From a virus (taxonomy: Duplodnaviria; Caudoviricetes): 64,000 bases of DNA. A program made the position numbers and the translations under genes. The stretch spans positions 832-64,831 of the IMG/VR virus record IMGVR_UViG_3300031998_000080. One strand, given 5' to 3'. The notes beneath the pieces were generated by a model. It searched no databases, had not been told where the DNA came from, and saw only the letters and a program-made list of their open reading frames with translations. Below are positions 5,270 through 51,107 of this stretch, piece after piece (within the stretch, counting starts at the first letter, position 1; each line of letters opens with the position of its first letter).

Positions 5270-6140
5270 CTATGTTCTTGTTTTTGAGCAGGAAGGTACG
5301 CCCACGGGCGCCGGACTTCCACGTTGCGAGAGTCTTTCCTTCGTAGATGAGGGACTCGGCTTCGCCCATGTAGAGTTTCAGCGAATCCTTCAATGCGTCC
5401 GCGTCGGTTTCGAGGGCCGCCTTCTGTGTGTTCAGGCTTACGAGGGAGAGCAGATTCGCAACCGCCTCGTCGTCCGCCTCTATGGTGGTGCCCGGGTCGC
5501 TTCCCTTCATCACGAAGTCTGCTACGGAAATGAGTTCCGGCTCTTTCCCGCCGAGGACACAATCGTTCCAGAAGGCGTCCACCTGCTCGCCGATGAAGTT
5601 TGCGAAGGTCTCGTCCCATTCGACGGGTGCGTGTCCGAAGTACCGCCCGTTGGTCAGCCAACAGAGTTCGCACTTATGTATGCCCGTTATGAGCATCTGA
5701 TATTCACATTGTGCGACGTAGTAGACGGGCAGATCGTCTGGGTCGAACTCCATTGAGGACGTCTTGATTTCGAGAAGCATCTTCTCCTTCTTCCCTGACC
5801 ACGGACTTACGCTGTATGCGATGCGGTCGGGCGTGCACTTTCTCCACGGCTTCTCTGCGTCTTGGTAGATGATATCCTTTGCGGACGCTTTGACCGCCCT
5901 GCCACCAGTCTCTTCTTCCCAAAGGGAGACAACTACGGGCTCGAGCAAATGACCCAGACGCATCGCAAGGTTTTCCTCGAGCGGGGGGACCTGCTTTGTC
6001 TTTCGCAGATAGAGACTGAATGGTGTCTCCCAGGGGCTCAGTCCTAAGATTGCGCTCACCTCGGAGGCACCGATTCCGTCCTCTCTCGCCTTGAGCCATT
6101 CGTCATGGCTCGCCGGCTTGATGATGTTGGGTTTCATCAC
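5229..6140 (-). CDS. YqaJ-like viral recombinase exonuclease
   Basis: EWLKAREDGIGASEVSAILGLSPWET, TPDR, EIKT, YYVAQCEYQM motifs. Confidence 0.9.
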   Translation of the reverse strand: MMKPNIIKPASHDEWLKAREDGIGASEVSAILGLSPWETPFSLYLRKTKQVPPLEENLAMRLGHLLEPVVVSLWEEETGGRAVKASAKDIIYQDAEKPWRKCTPDRIAYSVSPWSGKKEKMLLEIKTSSMEFDPDDLPVYYVAQCEYQMLITGIHKCELCWLTNGRYFGHAPVEWDETFANFIGEQVDAFWNDCVLGGKEPELISVADFVMKGSDPGTTIEADDEAVANLLSLVSLNTQKAALETDADALKDSLKLYMGEAESLIYEGKTLATWKSGARGRTFLLKNKNIDEINESKEEDENE

Positions 6141-11864: not shown

Positions 11865-12146
11865 CTACTCAATCCCGTAGTCGGTTGCGAGTTCCTCGAC
11901 CCACGATTCGAGCATATCAACGAAGGTGGTTGCGTCGCCCTTCGTTACCTCACGCAGTTCCTTGATTCTCCGTGCGGTTTTCTCGGACACACGGAAGGGT
12001 AGCATCGTGTTCCTCGGATTCTCCTTGTAAGGTCCGACCTTCACGCCCGCTTTCCGTCCCGATCCAATCCGTTTACCGCCCCGACCGACTGGCTTTTTAG
12101 GTCTGCCTGGTTTCCTTTTCGCTGTCTTTTTCTTTTCTTCTTCCAT
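11865..12146 (-). CDS. Basic DNA-binding protein (AT-hook-like N-terminus plus RHH-like segment)
   Basis: KPGRPKK, RGGKRIGSGRK, TMLPFRVSEKTARRIKEL. Confidence 0.6.
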   Translation of the reverse strand: MEEEKKKTAKRKPGRPKKPVGRGGKRIGSGRKAGVKVGPYKENPRNTMLPFRVSEKTARRIKELREVTKGDATTFVDMLESWVEELATDYGIE

Positions 12147-12866: not shown

Positions 12867-13034
12867 TTAGATGTTGTAGGTTGTGTCGGGTTGGTACTCC
12901 CCGTTGGTTTCCCTTGTGAGTGCGGACTCCAAATCCATAACACGGAGTATGGTTTCACGGGAGTTGCGGTGAAAGTCCTTGAACGAGTGGAAAATATCGT
13001 TCATCAATTCAAGTTGTTCGTGCGTTAGTTTCAT
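12867..13034 (-). CDS. Small hypothetical protein (MKLTHEQLELMNDIF..., 55 aa)
   Basis: Hand translation. Confidence 0.6.
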   Translation of the reverse strand: MKLTHEQLELMNDIFHSFKDFHRNSRETILRVMDLESALTRETNGEYQPDTTYNI

Positions 13035-13045
13035 TTCGTTTGGTG

Positions 13046-13573
13046 TTAGATTGTTTCTTCAAGGATTCTCACGATAGCCATTAGGTCATCAGTTTCCATT
13101 TCATCGAACTCTATCGGCTCTCCCCCGTCATTGGGGTTGAAATAGAGCACCCCGTCATTGGTTTCAAAGATGCCGATGACTGACGGAAAGTCTAACGGGT
13201 GGTCGAACTCCATGGGGTTTTGCTCGTTGTGCTCATACCCGTTGTCCGTTGCGTGTTGTGCGAGGATTGCCGAAATCTTGTGGCGTATCGGCTCACGGAT
13301 AGTGTCCTCAAAGTAGAAATCATCGCCACACTCCTTGCAGTGGTAGCAGTCATCGTTGAGGATTTTGTGGGTGTATTCCGAGCCACAATAGGGGCACACG
13401 ATTGTACCGCTCTCGAACTTTGGCTCATCAAGGAGAATGGCTATGTCCGCACCAAATGCGTTCATGTCATCGTAGTCTTGTAGCATCACGTTGATGCCGT
13501 TGATTGCGTCCTGCGGAGAGTTAATGTCCGCACCGTCAATCGTGATTGTTGCTTTGATAGTGAATCTTGCCAT
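13046..13573 (-). CDS. Zn-ribbon-containing hypothetical protein
   Basis: CPYC...CKEC motif. Confidence 0.75.
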   Translation of the reverse strand: MARFTIKATITIDGADINSPQDAINGINVMLQDYDDMNAFGADIAILLDEPKFESGTIVCPYCGSEYTHKILNDDCYHCKECGDDFYFEDTIREPIRHKISAILAQHATDNGYEHNEQNPMEFDHPLDFPSVIGIFETNDGVLYFNPNDGGEPIEFDEMETDDLMAIVRILEETI

Positions 13574-13629
13574 AATGCTTTTGTGTTAATGGTTAATTGG
13601 CAAGCATAGGCAGGGTCAGCCGCCTATGC
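13574..13629 (-). promoter_or_regulatory. Hairpin-CCAAT leader module (loop class CTGACC)
   Basis: GCATAGGC-GGCTGACCCT-GCCTATGC, then CCAAT, then spacer to ATG. Confidence 0.7.
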
Positions 13630-13753
13630 CCGTAAAGAAGTTCCCCTATTATCTCCCGACAATGAATCGGGGAACTGAACGAATTGTGTAGCACCTCACG
13701 GAGAATCCGAAAGGACTGCGATTCGGAACGGCTCGCAGTCAGCCGTAAGAGTA

Positions 13754-15175
13754 TCAGCAAGCCACCGCAACCTTTCCCTGCCGTATCTCCTTGACCTGCC
13801 ACATATTGTCATTCATAGTCTTTACGATGCTATCGTGAAGGGGAGTGTGCGTATCGTGTTCCCCGTAGCATTGGAGTATCTTGAACGAACGAAGGTCAAT
13901 CTCAATCGTTTCAATGGGATTGTTCTCGGCATTACGGGCGGATAGGATAAGCGAATCCGCCTTGCTGTAATAGCCACAACGGAACACGCAGTGGCTCAAT
14001 GTGTCCCCTTCGTTCTTGAACTCATCTATGCTCTTTAAGCACACGATTGTAAACCCGACCCCTGCGATTGACAAGTCAAAGTATTTCTCTCTCCGTTTGA
14101 TGAACTCTTCCTCGGTCTTTTTCGCTTTCTTCATCTGTTCCTCTGCCTGCCTGCGGTTTTGCTCATCTATCGCCCTTCTCCTTCTGTCCTGCTCAATCGC
14201 AATCTTCCGATTCTGCTCGGCAAGCAACGCTTGGTGTGCATCGTGCAGATTGGCAGGGCAGAGGTACTTTGGATTGTGTATGTCCTTGTTCAAATACCGA
14301 AGCATACAAATCATATCACGCCACTCGTTAATGTTGTCCTCGTTGAAAACGAAGCCGTGTTTCAGTGCGATTCGGATTTGTTGCTGATAGTAACCCAAGT
14401 CCCTGCGGAAGAACTTTGCAACCGCCCAGTTCCCCTGCTTCCACAATGTTTCAAAGAAGGGGTTTTCAGCCATTGACTGAATAATCTGCGTGAGTTTCAT
14501 TCCGTGCAGTGCGTTGAGGTCAATCCCTCTCCGTGCGAGTTCCGCATCAAGGGAGAACTTTGGCATATCGTAATGCTCGGTGTACTCGAAGGTTTCTTCC
14601 ACGCTTACCCCTTCCCCTACGAAATGCCGTGTGTTGGATTTCCACCACCGACCATAGAACATTCCCGCCATTCGTGCGATATAGTGGAATGTCTTTCCAC
14701 CCCTCTCCCAAGTCGCACCGATATCCTCAATGAGAATGTCGGGTTGCTTCCCTGCCTTGTAGGTGGAGGTTATCGCAAAGTATCGTGTGATTTTCCAACT
14801 CCCCATAGTCGCATGGACTGCGACCTCATCTTTGAAAGTCCGTTTCTTGAAACGCCAAAGTTCAATCATCATCGGTCTGCCACAATGGGGGCAAGTCCCC
14901 AAGTGCGACCAACGGATATTCTCCTGCCCCCACTTGGTCTTAATGTAATCGGGATTCTTTCGGTAGTCCTTTACCTCGGAAAGCGGAAACTCCGCACCGC
15001 AGTCCCCACAAAAGTAGGTGTTGTTCTGCTCTGCCCGTTTCCCGTACTTTCCCATACAGACGGAATAACCGAATGGATCGGAAAGGAAAGATTGTGCATC
15101 GCTACCGACCTTTGGTAGCATCTTGTCGAGGAACATAATCTCTGCCCTCTCCATTTCTTTCGTTACCTTTTTCAT
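13754..15175 (-). CDS. PcfJ-like protein
   Basis: C-terminal WRDMICML...DLHDAH, LKSIDEFKNEGDTLSHCV, NPIETIEIDL, QCYGEHD motifs. Confidence 0.85.
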   Translation of the reverse strand: MKKVTKEMERAEIMFLDKMLPKVGSDAQSFLSDPFGYSVCMGKYGKRAEQNNTYFCGDCGAEFPLSEVKDYRKNPDYIKTKWGQENIRWSHLGTCPHCGRPMMIELWRFKKRTFKDEVAVHATMGSWKITRYFAITSTYKAGKQPDILIEDIGATWERGGKTFHYIARMAGMFYGRWWKSNTRHFVGEGVSVEETFEYTEHYDMPKFSLDAELARRGIDLNALHGMKLTQIIQSMAENPFFETLWKQGNWAVAKFFRRDLGYYQQQIRIALKHGFVFNEDNINEWRDMICMLRYLNKDIHNPKYLCPANLHDAHQALLAEQNRKIAIEQDRRRRAIDEQNRRQAEEQMKKAKKTEEEFIKRREKYFDLSIAGVGFTIVCLKSIDEFKNEGDTLSHCVFRCGYYSKADSLILSARNAENNPIETIEIDLRSFKILQCYGEHDTHTPLHDSIVKTMNDNMWQVKEIRQGKVAVAC

Positions 15176-15234
15176 AATGCGTAATGTTTTTAGTTGTTAA
15201 TTGGCACTCCCGTTCCGCAGTCAAGGGAACGGGA
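15176..15234 (-). promoter_or_regulatory. Hairpin-CCAAT leader module (loop class TTGAnTG)
   Basis: TCCCGTTCC-CTTGACTGC-GGAACGGGA, then CCAAT. Confidence 0.7.
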
Positions 15235-15245
15235 ATGAATGTGGG

Positions 15246-16217
15246 TCAGTCGAAGAATCCTGCGAACAAGTCCATTTGCTCTACGGACTTGGCTTGCTCT
15301 CGGCTACCCTTCTTCCCCTCTTTCTCATAGTTCTCCAAGTTAGGTCTTTCCATAGGGACAAACCCTGCGAGAAGGTTGTCCTTCTTTTTCTCCTTCTTGA
15401 CCTTCTTCCCTTCCTCGCTCTTGACCTTTGCCGTGATTGCTTTGGAAATGTCATGCACATTGTCCTTCGGCTTTGGCGGTTGCGGTTTCTCCTTCTTCGG
15501 CTTCGCAGGGGTGCTGGGTGTCTTTGCGACCTTCGCAACCGCACCCGTTACCTTGCGGATTTCGATGAACTCCTCATCGTAGTAGTGGCGAATCAGCGTG
15601 AACATTTCCTCATCGGGGAAGCCGGACAGTCCGAAATTTCCCTGCTGATGCGTCCGTGCGTATTCGTATGCTTCGCCCATAATGTAGTCCGCACACTCTT
15701 GAAGGGATTTCGGCTTCTCGGCTCGGCTCTCCCGTTCCTTTACCACATTGGCAAAGATTTCATCTTCGGCAATCAGTTTCTCATAGAACGGCTTGATTGC
15801 GATGACAAGCGGATTGAACGAGAATCCCTCGGGCAGATTCGGCTTGTAGGTGTCCTTCTTCTCCTTCGGCTTGTCCTTCCCGTCCTTCTTGTCCTCGGTC
15901 TTTTCCTCGGTTTCTTCCTCGGAATCGGTGGATTCCCCGTCAGTTTCCTCGCTGAGAATCTCGTTTTCGGCATCAGCCGTGTCCTCGGCTACGGATTCCT
16001 CGTTCTCGGCAGGGGATTCCTCGGTCTTTTCCTTCCCGATAGCGGAAAGTCCTTTCGACAGGCACTCGGCTACGGCATCTGCGTTGTTGTCGCAGTCGAA
16101 GAACTTGGCGAGGTCTGCGATAGAATCCTCGCCCCAAAGAGCCATAAGCGGAACAATCTCGCTTGTGGGTTTACCCTTGCAGACCGCAAGGATAGTGTAG
16201 ATTTGCTCGGTTTTCAT
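15246..16217 (-). CDS. PcfK-like protein with acidic linker
   Basis: KSLQECADYIMGEA...EEMFTLIRHYYDE and QMDLF tail; upstream of the PcfJ-like gene. Confidence 0.8.
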   Translation of the reverse strand: MKTEQIYTILAVCKGKPTSEIVPLMALWGEDSIADLAKFFDCDNNADAVAECLSKGLSAIGKEKTEESPAENEESVAEDTADAENEILSEETDGESTDSEEETEEKTEDKKDGKDKPKEKKDTYKPNLPEGFSFNPLVIAIKPFYEKLIAEDEIFANVVKERESRAEKPKSLQECADYIMGEAYEYARTHQQGNFGLSGFPDEEMFTLIRHYYDEEFIEIRKVTGAVAKVAKTPSTPAKPKKEKPQPPKPKDNVHDISKAITAKVKSEEGKKVKKEKKKDNLLAGFVPMERPNLENYEKEGKKGSREQAKSVEQMDLFAGFFD

Positions 16218-16274
16218 AAGGCATATTGTATTGGTTTGTATTGGCGAGTAGGGGGAACAATCAAGTCCCCCTAC
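16218..16274 (-). promoter_or_regulatory. Hairpin-CCAAT leader module (loop class TTGAnTG)
   Basis: GTAGGGGGA-CTTGATTGT-TCCCCCTAC, then CCAAT. Confidence 0.7.
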
Positions 16275-16292
16275 CCATAGGGAATCTGCGGA

Positions 16293-16766
16293 TTATCCGT
16301 AAATCAGTTCCCCGAAGAGGATAATTTGCATCAGTGCCTCGGCTTGCGGATTGTCCATTTCTCCGTGATTGTTATGAAAGTTGCGGTAGCACTCGGAAAT
16401 ATAGGCGAGGTCATTTTCCCCGTAGTGGTCATCGGAACGCTTGAAAGTCCCGTCAGCACACTTTTGTAACCCGTCCTTAATGTCTTGCAGGGTAACGAGG
16501 TATTCGGTGTGCCCGTCCTCATCAAATTCGTGTTCCAGAGTCCCGTAGACCTCGCCCTCATCAGCGTTGTAGTCGGTGCAGGTAAGCATCTTCCCTGCGA
16601 GTAGTGCTTTCGCCCATATATCTTCCATGCAGTCGGTTTCCTCAATCTTGAATCCCGTTCGGTTGGAAGCGAATACAGAGAGCCAATTAGAGCCGTAGGT
16701 GGCGGTGCACAACAAGTCCACAAGGTCCTCTTGTGTCAGTTCTTCAATGATAGTCTTTGTTTTCAT
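16293..16766 (-). CDS. Hypothetical early protein
   Basis: 157-aa ORF ending ...ALMQIILFGELIYG. Confidence 0.8.
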   Translation of the reverse strand: MKTKTIIEELTQEDLVDLLCTATYGSNWLSVFASNRTGFKIEETDCMEDIWAKALLAGKMLTCTDYNADEGEVYGTLEHEFDEDGHTEYLVTLQDIKDGLQKCADGTFKRSDDHYGENDLAYISECYRNFHNNHGEMDNPQAEALMQIILFGELIYG

Positions 16767-16778
16767 AATGGTAGGTGT

Positions 16779-17024
16779 TTATGCAGGTAAATCTTCAGTT
16801 TCAGATACCACCGACCTGGGGTGCAGTTCCAAATCGGCTTTGTTCAGAATCTCGTTGTAGAACTTGATGCAGTTACTCGCCTTCTCGCTCGTTATGCCCA
16901 ATTCCCAACGAATGTGGAACAACCCCTGCGGAATCAGCGAGGGGTGTCGCATCTTGATAAACTCGGCTTTGTCAGCCAAGACTTGCAGATAGTTTATCTG
17001 CTTGGTTGTCGCTAAAAGAGCCAT
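16779..17024 (-). CDS. Hypothetical early protein
   Basis: ATTKQINYL motif. Confidence 0.7.
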   Translation of the reverse strand: MALLATTKQINYLQVLADKAEFIKMRHPSLIPQGLFHIRWELGITSEKASNCIKFYNEILNKADLELHPRSVVSETEDLPA

Positions 17025-17083
17025 AATGTGTAGGTATTAAGTGTGTGTATTGGCAGACGGGTAAGGGGTCAGCCTATCCCGTC
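17025..17083 (-). promoter_or_regulatory. Hairpin-CCAAT leader module (loop class CTGACC)
   Basis: GACGGGATAGG-CTGACC-CCTTACCCGTC, then CCAAT. Confidence 0.7.
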
Positions 17084-17100
17084 CGTGATTGCTGATTAGG

Positions 17101-17373
17101 TCAGCAAGTCCAATCGGCAGGGGAAAACACTTGCTCGGTGTCTATATCCTCTCTATCGTAGTCTATCCCGTTGTCCTCGCAGAAATCCTTAATGCAGTCC
17201 GTCATTTCATCATAGAGCGAACTGTCCGCAGTGTGAAGGTCGCATCGTTCAAGGTCTATCCGTGTGAGTGCAAGTCCTTCCCGTTCGTTGAAATAGGGAA
17301 TCATAACCGCACAATAGTTGTAAAGTTCTTCCCGTAGTGTCGCAGTCATATCGAATGGTGTTTTAGAGTTCAA
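17101..17373 (-). CDS. Hypothetical early protein
   Basis: ORF track, operon context. Confidence 0.7.
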   Translation of the reverse strand: MNSKTPFDMTATLREELYNYCAVMIPYFNEREGLALTRIDLERCDLHTADSSLYDEMTDCIKDFCEDNGIDYDREDIDTEQVFSPADWTC

Positions 17374-17548
17374 AACCTATAATCTCGCAGGGTCGGCTAT
17401 CCTCTGCCGTGCTCATCGCAAGAATGTAATACACATTGACAAGGGTGCTTTCAAGTTGTTCCCTCGGAATCCCTTTCAGTCCGTTCGGATTCTCAATCCG
17501 TTCAATCTCGCTTATCGCTTTGCGGATTGCGTCATCTTTCCTATCCAT
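17363..17548 (-). CDS. Hypothetical early protein
   Basis: ORF track, operon context. Confidence 0.65.
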   Translation of the reverse strand: MDRKDDAIRKAISEIERIENPNGLKGIPREQLESTLVNVYYILAMSTAEDSRPCEIIGFEL

Positions 17549-17549
17549 A

Positions 17550-17762
17550 TCAAAACTCGCTTTGAAAAGGAATGTCGGTCAGCAGAACGATATCCTTCGG
17601 GTTTTTGATTGTTACCTTCCAAATGGGAATCAGTTCCGCTTCGTAGAACTGGGACTTGTCCTTGCAGGAGAAGGGGTATTTGTTCCCCACATTGAAAGAT
17701 AGGGTGTCTATCTGTTCATCAGTGAGGTAAAGGGTTATCGGGGTGGGTTTCTTCTGTTTCAT
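17550..17762 (-). CDS. Hypothetical early protein
   Basis: ORF track, operon context. Confidence 0.65.
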   Translation of the reverse strand: MKQKKPTPITLYLTDEQIDTLSFNVGNKYPFSCKDKSQFYEAELIPIWKVTIKNPKDIVLLTDIPFQSEF

Positions 17763-17774
17763 AATCGTATCGGT

Positions 17775-18056
17775 TTATTGTTCTTGGTCAAGGGTGTGTG
17801 CGGTAGTGAAAACCCACGCAATTTTACGCACCCCGTTCGTGTATTCCCGAATCTCATACTCGCCACCAAGTTTAGCAGTTTGGTTGTAACCGAGCCGAAA
17901 TCCGTTACTCAGCGTTCCGTCCTTTTCCCAATCACGGACAGACTTAACATAGAACAATCTTGCTTTGTCATAGTCCGTGAAATACCAACTCCATTGGTTG
18001 TTGTAGCCTTCATTCTCGTTCTTTGAGAATCTTTGATGAATGATAAAGAGTTTCAT
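17775..18056 (-). CDS. Hypothetical early protein
   Basis: ORF track, operon context. Confidence 0.7.
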   Translation of the reverse strand: MKLFIIHQRFSKNENEGYNNQWSWYFTDYDKARLFYVKSVRDWEKDGTLSNGFRLGYNQTAKLGGEYEIREYTNGVRKIAWVFTTAHTLDQEQ

Positions 18057-18158
18057 ATCCGTATCGGTTTTTAGTTCTCGTTTTCGGTACAGATCCAGTC
18101 CAAAATGGCTGAAAAAATGATTGCAGGAATGATAAAGTAGAGCATAGCGGAAAAGGTG

Positions 18159-18392
18159 TTAATATGATTCACAGATGCAGTCCATAACCATACAAGGTTT
18201 CCCGAAAGCGGGAACGCTTGTAAAGTATTCGTGATAGTCGGTGGGACTGATTACGATAAGCCGATTCTTTGCGTACCAATCGGCAATAATGTCAATGTCC
18301 GCATCGGTTATGCCCGTCCAATCATCGTTGATTAACGCACAGAGGGCATAGGTGGGTATTTTTTCGATAGTCCGTTCCATAGCGTTACGCAA
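18159..18392 (-). CDS. Hypothetical early protein
   Basis: IPTYALCALINDDWTGITDAD motif. Confidence 0.7.
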   Translation of the reverse strand: MRNAMERTIEKIPTYALCALINDDWTGITDADIDIIADWYAKNRLIVISPTDYHEYFTSVPAFGKPCMVMDCICESY

Positions 18393-18546
18393 CTTGTCTT
18401 GGTACTGCGATTCTGAACTCCTGCGAAGGGTTGCAGGAATGACGGAGTATCATTTCGCTTTCCGCATCATCTTGCGTGGCGAAACTCCCGTACAAGTGCC
18501 ATTTCTTTTCCTCGGGGCACTTTCCGATTAGCCAAAAATCTTTCAT
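18385..18546 (-). CDS. Small early protein (MKDFWLIGK...)
   Basis: Start chosen at the ATG following the leader module. Confidence 0.65.
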   Translation of the reverse strand: MKDFWLIGKCPEEKKWHLYGSFATQDDAESEMILRHSCNPSQEFRIAVPRQVA

Positions 18547-18603
18547 AATGCGTAGTGTTTTAGTTGTTGATTGGGTAGCGGATAGGGGGTCAGCCCACAC
18601 CGC
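18547..18603 (-). promoter_or_regulatory. Hairpin-CCAAT leader module (loop class CTGACC)
   Basis: GCGGTGTGGG-CTGACC-CCCTATCCGC, then CCAAT. Confidence 0.65.
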
Positions 18604-18615
18604 CACAAAAAGGGG

Positions 18616-18924
18616 TTATCGCACATTTGCGGTAACCTCTAAATAGTGCGTGCGATTCAGTTCCGCACATTCCAAACTATCGAAGAACGATTTGTTAGGA
18701 ACGTATTTCCGTTCGGCTTTGCAAATGAATCGCTTTGCGGTTTCAAGGCACCAAACGGGTTGAAGGTGCTCATTCCCGTAGACAAGGGAAAAATGGCTCT
18801 CGTTGTTGTCCTGCTTTTCGTAGTTCCTTTCCGCTATTGCGAAAAGTCCCGACCAATCGGTAGTGAAATAATAGTGGCTACCCGTAAATAGAACATTCAT
18901 GTTCTTTGTCTTGTAGATTTCCAT
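18616..18924 (-). CDS. Hypothetical early protein
   Basis: ORF track. Confidence 0.7.
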   Translation of the reverse strand: MEIYKTKNMNVLFTGSHYYFTTDWSGLFAIAERNYEKQDNNESHFSLVYGNEHLQPVWCLETAKRFICKAERKYVPNKSFFDSLECAELNRTHYLEVTANVR

Positions 18925-18938
18925 AACGCAGTAGGTTT

Positions 18939-19190
18939 TTATTTATCCCAACAAGTGAAACTTTTTGCAGGTCGGAAGGTGCAAGTGTAACGGGAGGGAG
19001 TGAAATACGGCTTGTCATAAGACCAATTCACATTCTTGTAGGAAGAATCGTTCCCGAATCCGTTTAGCATCTTGTCCGCCTCCGTCCAATTCTCACAGAC
19101 AGCGACTTGTTTGTGAATCTTTCCTTCGGCTTTTCCCCAACCCGAAAGAAATTTGTCGGTTGCCCAAACATAAATGGTTTCTTTTTCCAT
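18939..19190 (-). CDS. First gene of the early operon, hypothetical
   Basis: YVWATDKFLSGWGKAEG motif. Confidence 0.75.
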   Translation of the reverse strand: MEKETIYVWATDKFLSGWGKAEGKIHKQVAVCENWTEADKMLNGFGNDSSYKNVNWSYDKPYFTPSRYTCTFRPAKSFTCWDK

Positions 19191-19251
19191 AACTGATAGG
19201 TATTAAGTGTTAAACATTGGAACAGAGCAGGGGAACATTCAACCCCTGCCC
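19191..19251 (-). promoter_or_regulatory. Hairpin-CCAAT leader module (loop class TTGAnTG)
   Basis: GGGCAGGGG-TTGAATGTT-CCCCTGCTC (one G-U pair on the coding strand), then CCAAT. Confidence 0.7.
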
Positions 19252-19487
19252 CATTTAAAAGTACATTGGGAGTGGTACATTCTCTTTCGCATCTAAAATT
19301 ATTGTCCGTCCCGTATCGTGGGGGTATTCACTTACAACTTGTCAATGTGCTTCGGAGGTGTCGCAAACTTGTTGCCCCGTTGTTTCCTCTTTCGCCAACT
19401 CCCTTTAATGAAAGGGGTGCTTTGTCCGTCCGAGTTCGGAATGCGTGTGAGAGGTCAAACCTTCACGCTGGGTGAACTCTTCAAGGG

Positions 19488-19519
19488 CAAAGGTATAACG
19501 TTTATTTTTAATATGCAAG
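19488..19519 (-). promoter_or_regulatory. Early-operon promoter
   Basis: TACCTTTG -7 box; imperfect CTTG -33 box at 20 bp spacing. Confidence 0.6.
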
Positions 19520-21578
19520 CATTTTAATCAAATATTTTTGGGAAATTTTTTCACATTTTTTGGAAAACGGCATTACAACGCACTGCAACGCAGATTTTAA
19601 CCCCTAAAAAAATTTCTTTAATAAGGGTATTTTTTACGGAAATAGGCAGGAATCAGAACAAATTAACCCAAAATCTGTGAATGTGCCAAAACAAAGCACA
19701 AGCACAAATCCACAGAGGAATCGGCAAACAAAACAACACCGAATAACCTATCAAATGAATGTACTAACACACCAACACACAAAGCGAATAACAACTTTCT
19801 CTCCCCTTTCTTTCTTTTGGTATTTTCTTTCTTTTGCCCTCTCTTTGCGTAGATGAATAGATATTTCCTTATTGCCCTTAAAATTCGTTTGGATATTATC
19901 TTTCATCTCTATTCAATGAGAATAAGTCCTGCAATACGCACATACATACGCATACGCATATACACGATATGCACGCACGCATTATGCACACAATCCCGAC
20001 AAATCAATCAACCCATTATCCATACAACTCAATCAAAAAAAAGGGAAAGCAAACCGAATCCAAACAGCACTAATCAAGCGTAAACTATTGGGAATCAATG
20101 GGGATTCGATACTCCAACAAAAATGTTGGGGTTTCGCCCTCGCACGGGGAATGGCAAATCTAATGTCCAATTTTCCATATCAAGAACGGAAAATCAAGAA
20201 TAAAAAGGGGAAAATAGTACACTGAACTACTGAAAGTATGCTCTTTGAGAATACGAAAATGTTTATTTGACTGCGTTGTATTGGTGTTTTTGTGTATGTT
20301 CGACAAACATTTTGCAAGCGTTCAGGGAAAAATGGTGTGGGAGTACGGGAGAATTGGAAGGTGTACGCATGGGGGAACACAGGGGTATGGGCAAGGCGAA
20401 AAGGAACTCCATATCCGGGGAGTCGGATAGTATCAAGCGCTAAATATGGACCTTTTTCAGTTTTTAGTTCCTGCTTTGTTTTTGTTTTGCTTTGTGATGA
20501 TGTTTCATCGAGCTGTCTGGTGCTGTCGTTTGTTTTGGATCGTGGAGTGTTTGGGTGTGTTGTTTGTTCCAGGATGGGTGGGGGTAGGCATGTTTTTCCT
20601 TGAGTTTCGGTGTTAGAACTGTACCCGGGGAATCTGGATATCACAGACGATGATTCGGGGGTGCGGTTTCACATGGTGTGAAGATTTGTTCGCTTTGGGG
20701 TCTGGTTTTGGCTGTGGCGTGATTTCTTTTGGAAGATGATAGATTTATCATTTCGGAGGATTGGAGTGATTGTAGGGGATTTGTGGAGGCTTGGTGTGTG
20801 AAAGAAAAACCCTCCGTACCTTCTCGGCAGGGAGGGAAACCACCAATAGTTTGGCTAAAACCTTTGAAATGAAGAAATGCGTTGTGTTGTTGGGGGGAGT
20901 TTGCTGTCCCCATGAATAGCGAAATGTGTTCCCCCGGATGCAAAGATAGTGAAAAAAGTTCACTTGGGGTGAAAAAGATTGTGTTTGCTTATTGGTCGGT
21001 AATTTCTTTGTAACGGATTGGGTTAGAGGATTTTACGAGGGGAAACGGGGCGAAAAGTAGGGCACAAATTGCGGTTGGATAGTTCTCTGGGTGTGAATAT
21101 TCTGGAAATTTTGTGGTATGTTTGTCATGTCGGAGTGGTGGCCGGCGCACAGTTTGGAAAGTTATGCCCCAGTATGGGGTGTTAGTACGCGCCTGTTCGT
21201 TGTCCGCCACATTAGACGAACAGGCGGTATTTTTTTGTCCGCCTGGAAATACGCCTGAGAAGCGGGAGGTCTTTCCACGGTTCCCTTCCCGAAAAAGAAA
21301 GAACGTCGTGAGTCCCGATCCGTGGCGCGGAACGGGGCCGCAGGAAATTAAAAGCAGTGCGGGCAACGAGCGACTCTCGACCCGCGACCTCATGACGCCT
21401 GCGGTTGCGCTACGGGGAGCCTTGAGAGGGGAGGATTGAGACACGGGGCAGACCGCCCGCCCCGACAACGTCTCTCTGGACGTAAGGGTTTTTCAGGATG
21501 CTTTCTTGGATGGAAAGAGAATATCCGCTTGTTCCGAAGGGTTCGGGTTATGAGGGATATAGAGGGGGCGGAGTGTGC
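19520..21578. other. About 2-kb non-coding region with a sharp strand-skew switch near 20250
   Basis: Left part A/C-rich and right part G/T-rich on the plus strand; no convincing ORFs. Confidence 0.7.
21190..21236 (+). terminator. Terminator-like hairpin
   Basis: CGCCTGTTCGT/ACGAACAGGCG stem followed by GTATTTTTTT. Confidence 0.55.
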
Positions 21579-51069: not shown

Positions 51070-51107
51070 CGGGCGGTGGTGTGAGACAGTCACCGCCGCC
51101 CGTTTTT
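51070..51107 (+). terminator. Intrinsic terminator after the capsid gene
   Basis: 12-bp GC stem plus TTTTT. Confidence 0.85.

Follow-up and report, generated by a model that had tools for sequence, protein, structure and literature searches.

A cassette of about 65 nt, consisting of a hairpin of 12–13 bp with a YUGA loop (Y, pyrimidine), the trinucleotide CCA at the base of the helix and an A/C-rich leader running to a start codon, is repeated six times in one minus-strand operon of the phage represented by IMG/VR virus record IMGVR_UViG_3300031998_000080. The record, which is rated complete, is 64,831 bp long; the window, by which we mean the whole 64,000-nt stretch analysed, comprises its bases 832–64,831. 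The element is real, it is restricted to one clade of phages and is not a copied host motif, and selection acts on its structure as sense RNA. Phage early operons are already known to contain intercistronic RNA elements in repeated copies; a family with a 13-bp helix, a YUGA loop and CCA has not been described. As to function we lean, tentatively, towards intercistronic RNA processing and 5′-stabiliser cassettes which would divide the early transcript into stable pieces that can be translated.

Bacteroidales phages are abundant in the gut and rumen, and almost nothing is known of the control of their first-expressed genes. Their hosts are without Shine-Dalgarno-based initiation, Hfq and RNase J. 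A portable cassette of this size ahead of anti-defence-type genes (ArdA, SSB, PcfK and PcfJ in the relatives) could serve as a natural insulator or processing part for Bacteroidota; it would offer a handle on an RNA-recognising factor, and mark the places at which phages swap early genes.

Anatomy of the modules

All six hairpins which an earlier note on this sequence had placed ahead of start codons are present on the minus strand (M1 to M6, Table 1), with the loops it had read (CTGACC three times, and TTGACTG, TTGATTG and TTGAATG(TT)), the CCAAT after each stem, the A/C-rich spacer of 22–25 nt before the ATG, and the similarity of the spacers of M2 to M5 and of M4 to M6 (shared ACACTTAATACCTA). 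Its dimensions have had to be revised: the stems, given as 8–11 bp, are 12–13 bp when G·U and −1:73 pairs are included, and CCA follows the helix by 0–1 nt, where a gap of 3–5 nt between hairpin and CCAAT had been reported. Each module is laid out as a 12-nt 5′ arm, a loop of 6, 7 or 9 nt starting with YTGA and a 12-nt 3′ arm, after which comes one nucleotide (N73) that usually pairs with the base preceding the 5′ arm (position −1), and then CCA. The fold occupies 32–35 nt with calculated energies of −16.3 to −21.4 kcal/mol (RNAfold), and in five of the six the sense strand gives the better fold. The M2 hairpin begins 9 nt past the PcfK stop codon, and M6 lies within the 5′ untranslated region (UTR) of the operon; the genes that have no module are tightly coupled to the preceding gene. 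A pseudoknot between loop and leader was rejected by eye, the leaders having almost no G for the C residues of the loop.

Table 1. Hairpin modules and other transcription features of the early operon (window positions)
Feature	Position	Strand	Loop or motif	CCA	ATG	Gene downstream	R1 score	Remarks
M1	13571–13632	−	CTGACC	13598–13600	13573	175-aa Zn-ribbon gene	48.2 bits, E 3.5e-9	stem 13602–13631 plus −1:73 pair (13632/13601); 27 nt from CCA to ATG
M2	15173–15237	−	TTGACTG	15202–15204	15175	PcfJ-like gene	37.2 bits	
M3	16215–16277	−	TTGATTG	16242–16244	16217	PcfK-like gene	41.5 bits	
M4	17022–17085	−	CTGACC	17051–17053	17024	81-aa gene	43.3 bits	2×2 internal mismatch in mid-stem
M5	18544–18606	−	CTGACC	18572–18574	18546		44.9 bits	internal loop in mid-stem
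M6	19188–19255	−	TTGAATGTT (9 nt)	19218–19220	19190	first gene of operon	32.2 bits	
−7 promoter box, Bacteroidetes-type	19488–19495	−	TACCTTTG (TAnnTTTG)					TTG upstream; kept in 6/6 aligned relatives
Nested hairpin + UUCUUU	13640–13675	−						directly after PcfJ stop, just before M1; unlike the modules

Related phages, covariation and specificity

A scan with the single PcfJ protein returned nothing; the relatives came from an alignment-based scan and protein look-ups, through PcfJ homologues of 43–63% identity (loci L067/L156, L068, L069, L070, L073/L074, L075, L076, L157 and L158). All of them share the same synteny. A listing of the 80 nt ahead of each called gene showed a module in all clade loci, with stems that differ; the M2 orthologues of L068, L069, L070 and L158, for instance, have compensatory changes in the stem. 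An alignment (A3) of 38 distinct hairpins (45 copies) was made with no manual editing. All 13 pairs covary, with changes on both sides, and double-change cells number 173 compared with 30–46 in controls in which the 3′ partner columns were slid. Paired cells amount to 92.7% versus 46–50% in the slid controls, a percentage that is partly built in because copies were chosen by a pairing criterion, which does not apply to the diversity of pair types or to the genome controls below.

Among the copies the loops read CUGAUAC, CUGACC, UUGACUG or UUGAAUGUU; the YUGA core is invariant and the stems have diverged to saturation. Loop class follows position across phages, UUGAAUGUU standing ahead of the first gene and UUGACUG ahead of PcfJ; M6 is of the first-gene class, and the same class occurs upstream of the first gene in L067, L073 and L158. 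Position +1 is G in 28 of the 38 hairpins, +2 is G in 25, and −1 is a pyrimidine in 29 and pairs with N73 in 31, which brings the helix to 13 bp. Mismatches are concentrated at stem positions 7–9. The tail after the stem reads N-CCA-A-(U/A) and continues A/C-rich, never as a U-run, in 38/38 copies. With a composition of 48% A, 28% C, 20% U and 3% G the leaders are what we take to be the unstructured, Shine-Dalgarno-less type expected in this phylum. Between CCA and ATG lie 21–35 nt (median 28, standard deviation 2.9, n = 36), whereas the hairpin may follow the preceding stop codon at anything from 1 to 299 nt. Since their position tracks the downstream ATG and the tail lacks a U-run, the modules would be 5′ elements of translation units rather than terminators.

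The covariance-model search that the earlier note had proposed was carried out with a model, R1, which recovers the six window copies and the clade loci and almost nothing in 2.09 Mb of controls. It gives 54 matches in the window and nine clade loci, all on the coding strand; in the window itself, searched on both strands, there are exactly six (E 4e-5 to 4e-9). Bacteroidales genome loci with distant PcfJ genes, mostly conjugative elements, gave no match over 1.04 Mb, and other phage loci a single weak one (E 0.36) over 1.06 Mb. Across 151 Bacteroidales genomes three prophage copies were found in one genome and none in the other 150. Because the distant PcfJ loci (Bacteroides and Prevotella conjugative elements, other phages) contain no modules, the element is not linked to PcfJ as such. 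Exact-pattern scans of IMG/VR with two shared spacers returned only chance matches, without hairpins, and in short public PcfJ-bearing contigs, checked as possible RNA-derived assemblies, the sequence continues past the modules with no contig ends coinciding.

As had been supposed, the element does not belong to a named family. Rfam 15 gave no match at gathering score across the window, and at E ≤ 10 over positions 13000–20300 only chance-level matches, none of which overlaps a module hairpin. No description of the element was found in the literature, nor a matching motif in the RbpB literature.

Weaker or variant modules are also seen in a second, rightward operon beyond the repressor (L073 15533–15573, L157 10992–11032, L067 16083–16123 and L070 11485–11526), some of them with loops CCGACC or GGGTGACAC; the window has none in that region.

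Selection on the sense RNA

The strand on which the fold is selected can be read from its non-canonical pairs. Over the 12-bp stems of the 38 distinct hairpins there are 363 Watson-Crick, 64 G·U, 3 A·C and 26 other cells. When a transition breaks a Watson-Crick pair, G·T and A·C are a priori equally likely outcomes, and a 64:3 split has a one-sided binomial probability of about 3e-16, a value that treats as independent copies which are not all so. The fold is therefore selected on the coding strand, that is, in the sense RNA, and the earlier proposals that G–T pairs fall on the coding strand and that structure and loop are selected as an RNA-level element are borne out by this asymmetry and by the covariation. 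The same ratio disfavours a dimer-bound duplex palindrome, and likewise a template-strand hairpin of the N4 or Frpo type.

Promoter and transcript

The TAnnTTTG box at 19495 is likely to be the promoter of the whole early operon, M6 lying about 225 nt downstream of it. It is the sole such box near the operon, none being found in or beside the six modules, and sigma70-type matches at the modules are at chance level. Since the box is canonical and conserved, the host polymerase should be able to make the operon RNA, and since this single host-type promoter precedes the first module, the modules would be internal to one polycistronic mRNA. A −35/−10-type promoter formed by TTGAC ... CCAAT was rejected: the two motifs stand anywhere from 18 to 21 nt apart although the geometry of the helix does not change, and selection acts on the fold as RNA. 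A deletion in L068 (about 5800–5882) has taken the 5′ arm of the first module and most of the 5′ UTR, leaving the 3′ arm, CCAAT and leader intact; this fits a role for the module that matters only when a long upstream RNA is present.

Two further stretches of this region deserve mention. The 5′ UTR between promoter and first module (19260–19487, minus strand) is 75–80% conserved in L158 and L073 and holds a repeated ACGGACGGACA motif and a GTAC...GTAC hairpin, with no Rfam match; it may be a structured leader or the source of a 5′UTR-derived small RNA. Within the non-coding region of ca. 700 nt upstream of the early promoter, positions 19899–19990 (minus strand) form an alternating purine-pyrimidine tract rich in GCGTATG, with a weak resemblance to the Bacteroides-1 RNA (E 1.6, below threshold).

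Modules as possible points of exchange

In the comparison with L070, homology starts at query positions 2514 and 4365, the modules starting at 2517 and 4365, and one homology block ends at 5986, within the M1 hairpin. L070 carries between two modules an extra gene of 190 aa (amino acids) which the source phage does not have. Against L158, the 65 nt of M2 and its leader are 94% identical, whereas the flanking coding DNA is without detectable similarity, and an identical stem, GGGCGGTAGTGG, is found ahead of different genes in L070 and L073. The PeSL cassettes of T4-type phages, which combine a sigma70-type promoter with a terminator stem-loop of conserved sequence, are also sites at which homology breaks (Arbiol et al. 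2010, PMC2839356). Like them the modules are short repeated cassettes among small early genes with breaks of inter-phage homology, and the pattern, seen in a few cases, fits recombination at the cassettes. Unlike PeSLs, they contain no host promoter box or U-tract, and their stems are divergent in sequence and kept by covariation. The suggestion of module exchange as at the T4 stem-loops thus stands in part: homology blocks do start and end at modules, but the modules have neither a promoter nor a U-tract terminator.

Proposed function

If the modules are processing and stabiliser cassettes, the following course of events might be envisaged. The host RNA polymerase would transcribe one polycistronic early mRNA from the box at 19495. 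An endonuclease would cut this long transcript beside the hairpin; a host RNase Y or RNase E/G-type enzyme seems the likeliest cutter, and a phage enzyme is possible. The first part of the cassette, a very stable 13-bp hairpin, would cap and protect the new end of the downstream translation unit and shield its leader from upstream sequence, and the second, CCA(AU) with a G-poor unstructured leader of about 28 nt, would suit the Shine-Dalgarno-less initiation of Bacteroidetes. In this way each gene block would gain a standard, context-independent 5′ end and a stability of its own. A ruler-like factor, one which would contact both ends of the helix, is suggested by three features together: a helix length that does not vary, the conservation of YUGA in the loop and the position of CCA at the base. 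As a by-product, shared cassettes could act as recombination points swapping gene blocks among related phages.

The arrangement is that of an operon maturation site: within a polycistronic transcript a stable hairpin precedes the downstream cistron, placed 28 ± 3 nt ahead of the ATG. Five of five Bacteroidales genomes, including the one with the module-bearing prophage, encode both RNase Y and RNase E/G, and none of the five encodes RNase J. A base-paired 5′ end would shield an RNA from 5′-end-dependent attack by RNase E/G. In the early region of T7, RNase III sites are intercistronic hairpins in the first-expressed, anti-restriction operon of a podophage, whose processing gives stable monocistronic mRNAs; their helices are longer and irregular, are interrupted by internal loops and show no conserved loop sequence, and 13 bp lies at the lower limit of what RNase III accepts. 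The modules, too, are intercistronic hairpins in the presumed first-expressed, anti-restriction operon of a podophage. RNase Y maturation sites, such as those of cggR-gapA and glnRA in B. subtilis and saePQRS in S. aureus, leave a stabilising 5′ hairpin, and an AU-rich single-stranded tract just 3′ of it aids cleavage (PMC11780869). The modules resemble them in their intercistronic position, in the stable hairpin with which the downstream product would begin and in the conserved A/U-rich single-stranded tract right after it. The known sites, for their part, occur singly, are encoded by the host and have neither a conserved loop nor a fixed helix length, whereas the phage operon carries its element five to six times, in nearly standardised form and with the YUGA loop and CCA.

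Prophage operons provide a second precedent: individual genes there, ardA among them, are bordered by hammerhead ribozymes that cleave the polycistronic transcript (Perreault et al. 2011, PMC3088659). Such clustered hammerheads, thought to yield gene-length mRNAs, are also repeated structured RNAs at the gene junctions of an operon with anti-restriction genes. The modules, however, have no ribozyme core and no Rfam ribozyme match, and a 13-bp hairpin with a loop of 6–9 nt cannot be a hammerhead; a hammerhead reading of CUGA was rejected, there being no GA after N7 and no stem II. Any cleavage here would therefore require a protein or ribonucleoprotein enzyme.

Several points weigh against processing cassettes. 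Cleavage at the modules is itself something that we infer. A plain stabiliser hairpin needs neither a conserved loop nor CCA, which points to a specific partner, and position-specific loop classes look more like graded regulation than uniform processing. As the model finds no host-encoded copy in the other 150 genomes searched, recognition by an enzyme of the host would have to depend entirely on shape. The model leaves the invariant YUGA core and the constant helix length with CCA unexplained, and CCA is itself missing in about 5 of 57 copies, twelve-nucleotide arms followed by CCA being found in about 90%.

Alternative explanations

The conserved loop would be accounted for if the hairpin were an operator for a loop-specific RNA-binding protein, phage-encoded or injected, that bound every YUGA loop and switched the early genes together, either by translational repression or shut-off in the manner of T4 RegA/RegB or by boxB/N-like antitermination. 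We regard this as somewhat unlikely, though it has several facts behind it: the YUGA core does not vary in spite of saturated divergence in the stems, loop classes are kept by position, and restriction to one clade, with the host-order genomes that were searched lacking the element, is as expected of a phage-specific partner. Lambda and P22 boxB are likewise early-operon hairpins in which the loop is conserved and the stem free to vary, and the module loop resembles the loop context CUGAC of P22 boxB. The hairpin, however, stands ca. 28 nt upstream of the ATG and not over the initiation region, and recognition of the loop alone needs neither a constant 13-bp helix nor CCA at its base. BoxB has a 5-bp stem, a GNRA-like pentaloop, a paired boxA and one copy per early operon, none of which the modules share with their 13-bp stem, loops of 6–9 nt and five to six copies; no boxA-like conserved upstream motif was seen in alignment A3 or its flanks, and a strict boxB reading is given up. 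No Arg-rich N-like protein is obvious among the 18 open reading frames (ORFs) of the operon, in which the sole basic candidate is an AT-hook-like protein of 93 aa, remote homologues being possible. Unlikely, too, is that the module mimics a tRNA acceptor/T-arm minihelix and is handled by tRNA enzymes, with RNase P predicted to act at the 5′ base and RNase Z, 3′ trimming or the CCA enzyme at the 3′ base. It would be the phage equivalent of mitochondrial tRNA punctuation or of plant t-elements, with hairpin-CCA ends that might resist exonucleases. The t-elements act as processing signals (PMC1920247), and the cleavage of non-tRNA substrates by RNase P is reported to be dependent on a 3′ RCCA motif (PMC12710915). 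As in t-elements and organelle tRNA punctuation, a helix of acceptor-plus-T-arm length is followed by N-CCA between coding regions; the 12-nt 3′ arm, single nucleotide and CCA of most copies, the G at +1/+2, the pyrimidine at −1, the G·U pairs at the base and the mismatches at 7–9, where acceptor and T stems would join, all agree with this. Set against it are the YUGA... loop in place of the T-loop consensus UUCRANY (host tRNAs show GTTCGAATC), an N73 that is mostly paired, and five copies without CCA, some of which read GCAAAT or GCGAAT in place of GCCAAT. Moreover, 15 of 18 sampled Bacteroidales tRNA genes encode no CCA, which means that the host RNase P normally sees none, and ARAGORN found nothing tRNA-like. 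Were the mimicry true, the phage would be borrowing the enzymes that form tRNA ends in its host in order to divide up its first-expressed mRNA, which would give mitochondrial tRNA punctuation a counterpart in a bacterial virus, and the released hairpin-CCA ends might decoy defence toxins that attack tRNA 3′ ends.

Two other explanations carry still less weight with us. Serial attenuators or terminators, giving the operon polarity and read through by a processive antiterminator, might be suspected from stable GC-rich hairpins between gene blocks, the first of them in the 5′ UTR ahead of any gene, but this is very improbable: CCAAU and an A/C-rich tract follow the hairpin, never a U-tract, a terminator scan called 0/6 modules, and module position follows the downstream ATG and not the upstream stop. 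The same phage, moreover, uses canonical hairpin-plus-T-run terminators elsewhere, at 51070 after the capsid gene and at 13640–13675; the latter, whose equivalent hairpin and T-rich tail are present in L068 and L069, looks like a terminator or attenuator within the operon. We consider it highly improbable that the element acts at the DNA level, as a hairpin promoter for a virion or single-stranded-DNA-dependent polymerase (N4-like, Frpo/ssi-like) or as a structured recombination site (attC-like). The operon content does resemble the leading regions of conjugative elements, homology breakpoints coincide with modules, and a polyvalent protein of 5,359 aa that the phage packages has large unannotated regions. 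The G·T pairs, however, favour the non-template strand by 64:3, the opposite of a template-strand hairpin promoter, a conserved host-type promoter is already present, and the R′/R″ cores of attC are absent; the earlier idea of a single-stranded promoter for first-entering DNA is abandoned on the first two of these grounds. N4 hairpin promoters have a stem of 5–7 bp and a 3-nt loop. They lie on the template strand, whereas the module fold is on the sense strand and differs in its dimensions, and Frpo, which rebuilds a duplex promoter, extends over hundreds of nucleotides of the transferred (template) strand, in contrast to a sense-strand fold of 32–35 nt without TAnnTTTG or TTTG boxes. In Pfam, PHROGs and PDB sequence searches the 5,359-aa protein matched only helicase, LPD3, ART and families of unknown function, with no signal of an RNA polymerase.

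As a separate observation on the tRNA genes sampled above, all 18 (host contigs, loci L086–L136) adjoin PcfJ-bearing integrated elements, and many of these elements lie beside tRNA-Ser genes.

The source phage and its early operon

The window encodes a P22-like portal, an SU10-type capsid protein, RecT, YqaJ, a tyrosine integrase and the 5,359-aa polyvalent protein with its helicase, LPD3 and ART domains, a gene set that is, as judged from the sequence, the make-up of a temperate podophage. No INPHARED phage matched it in DNA similarity; its relatives are from Bacteroidales metagenome bins, and the Bacteroidales metagenome-assembled genome from which L076 comes contains a prophage with modules. 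The module-bearing operon includes the PcfK-like and PcfJ-like genes, and its counterpart in related phages additionally carries ArdA and SSB and is located between the polyvalent-protein block and an integrase/S24-repressor module. It is from this gene content and position that we describe the operon as early and of anti-defence type. Its last small gene (11865–12146, minus strand) specifies the 93-aa protein mentioned above, which has an isoelectric point of 10 and an AT-hook-like N-terminus (KRKPGRPKKP...GRGGKR) and is a candidate DNA-binding regulator. The gene after M5 (18159–18546, minus strand) reads as two overlapping ORFs, one of 53 aa and a TTG-started one of 77 aa; both are collinear with one homologous stretch in L158, and the pair could represent a frameshift or two coupled genes.

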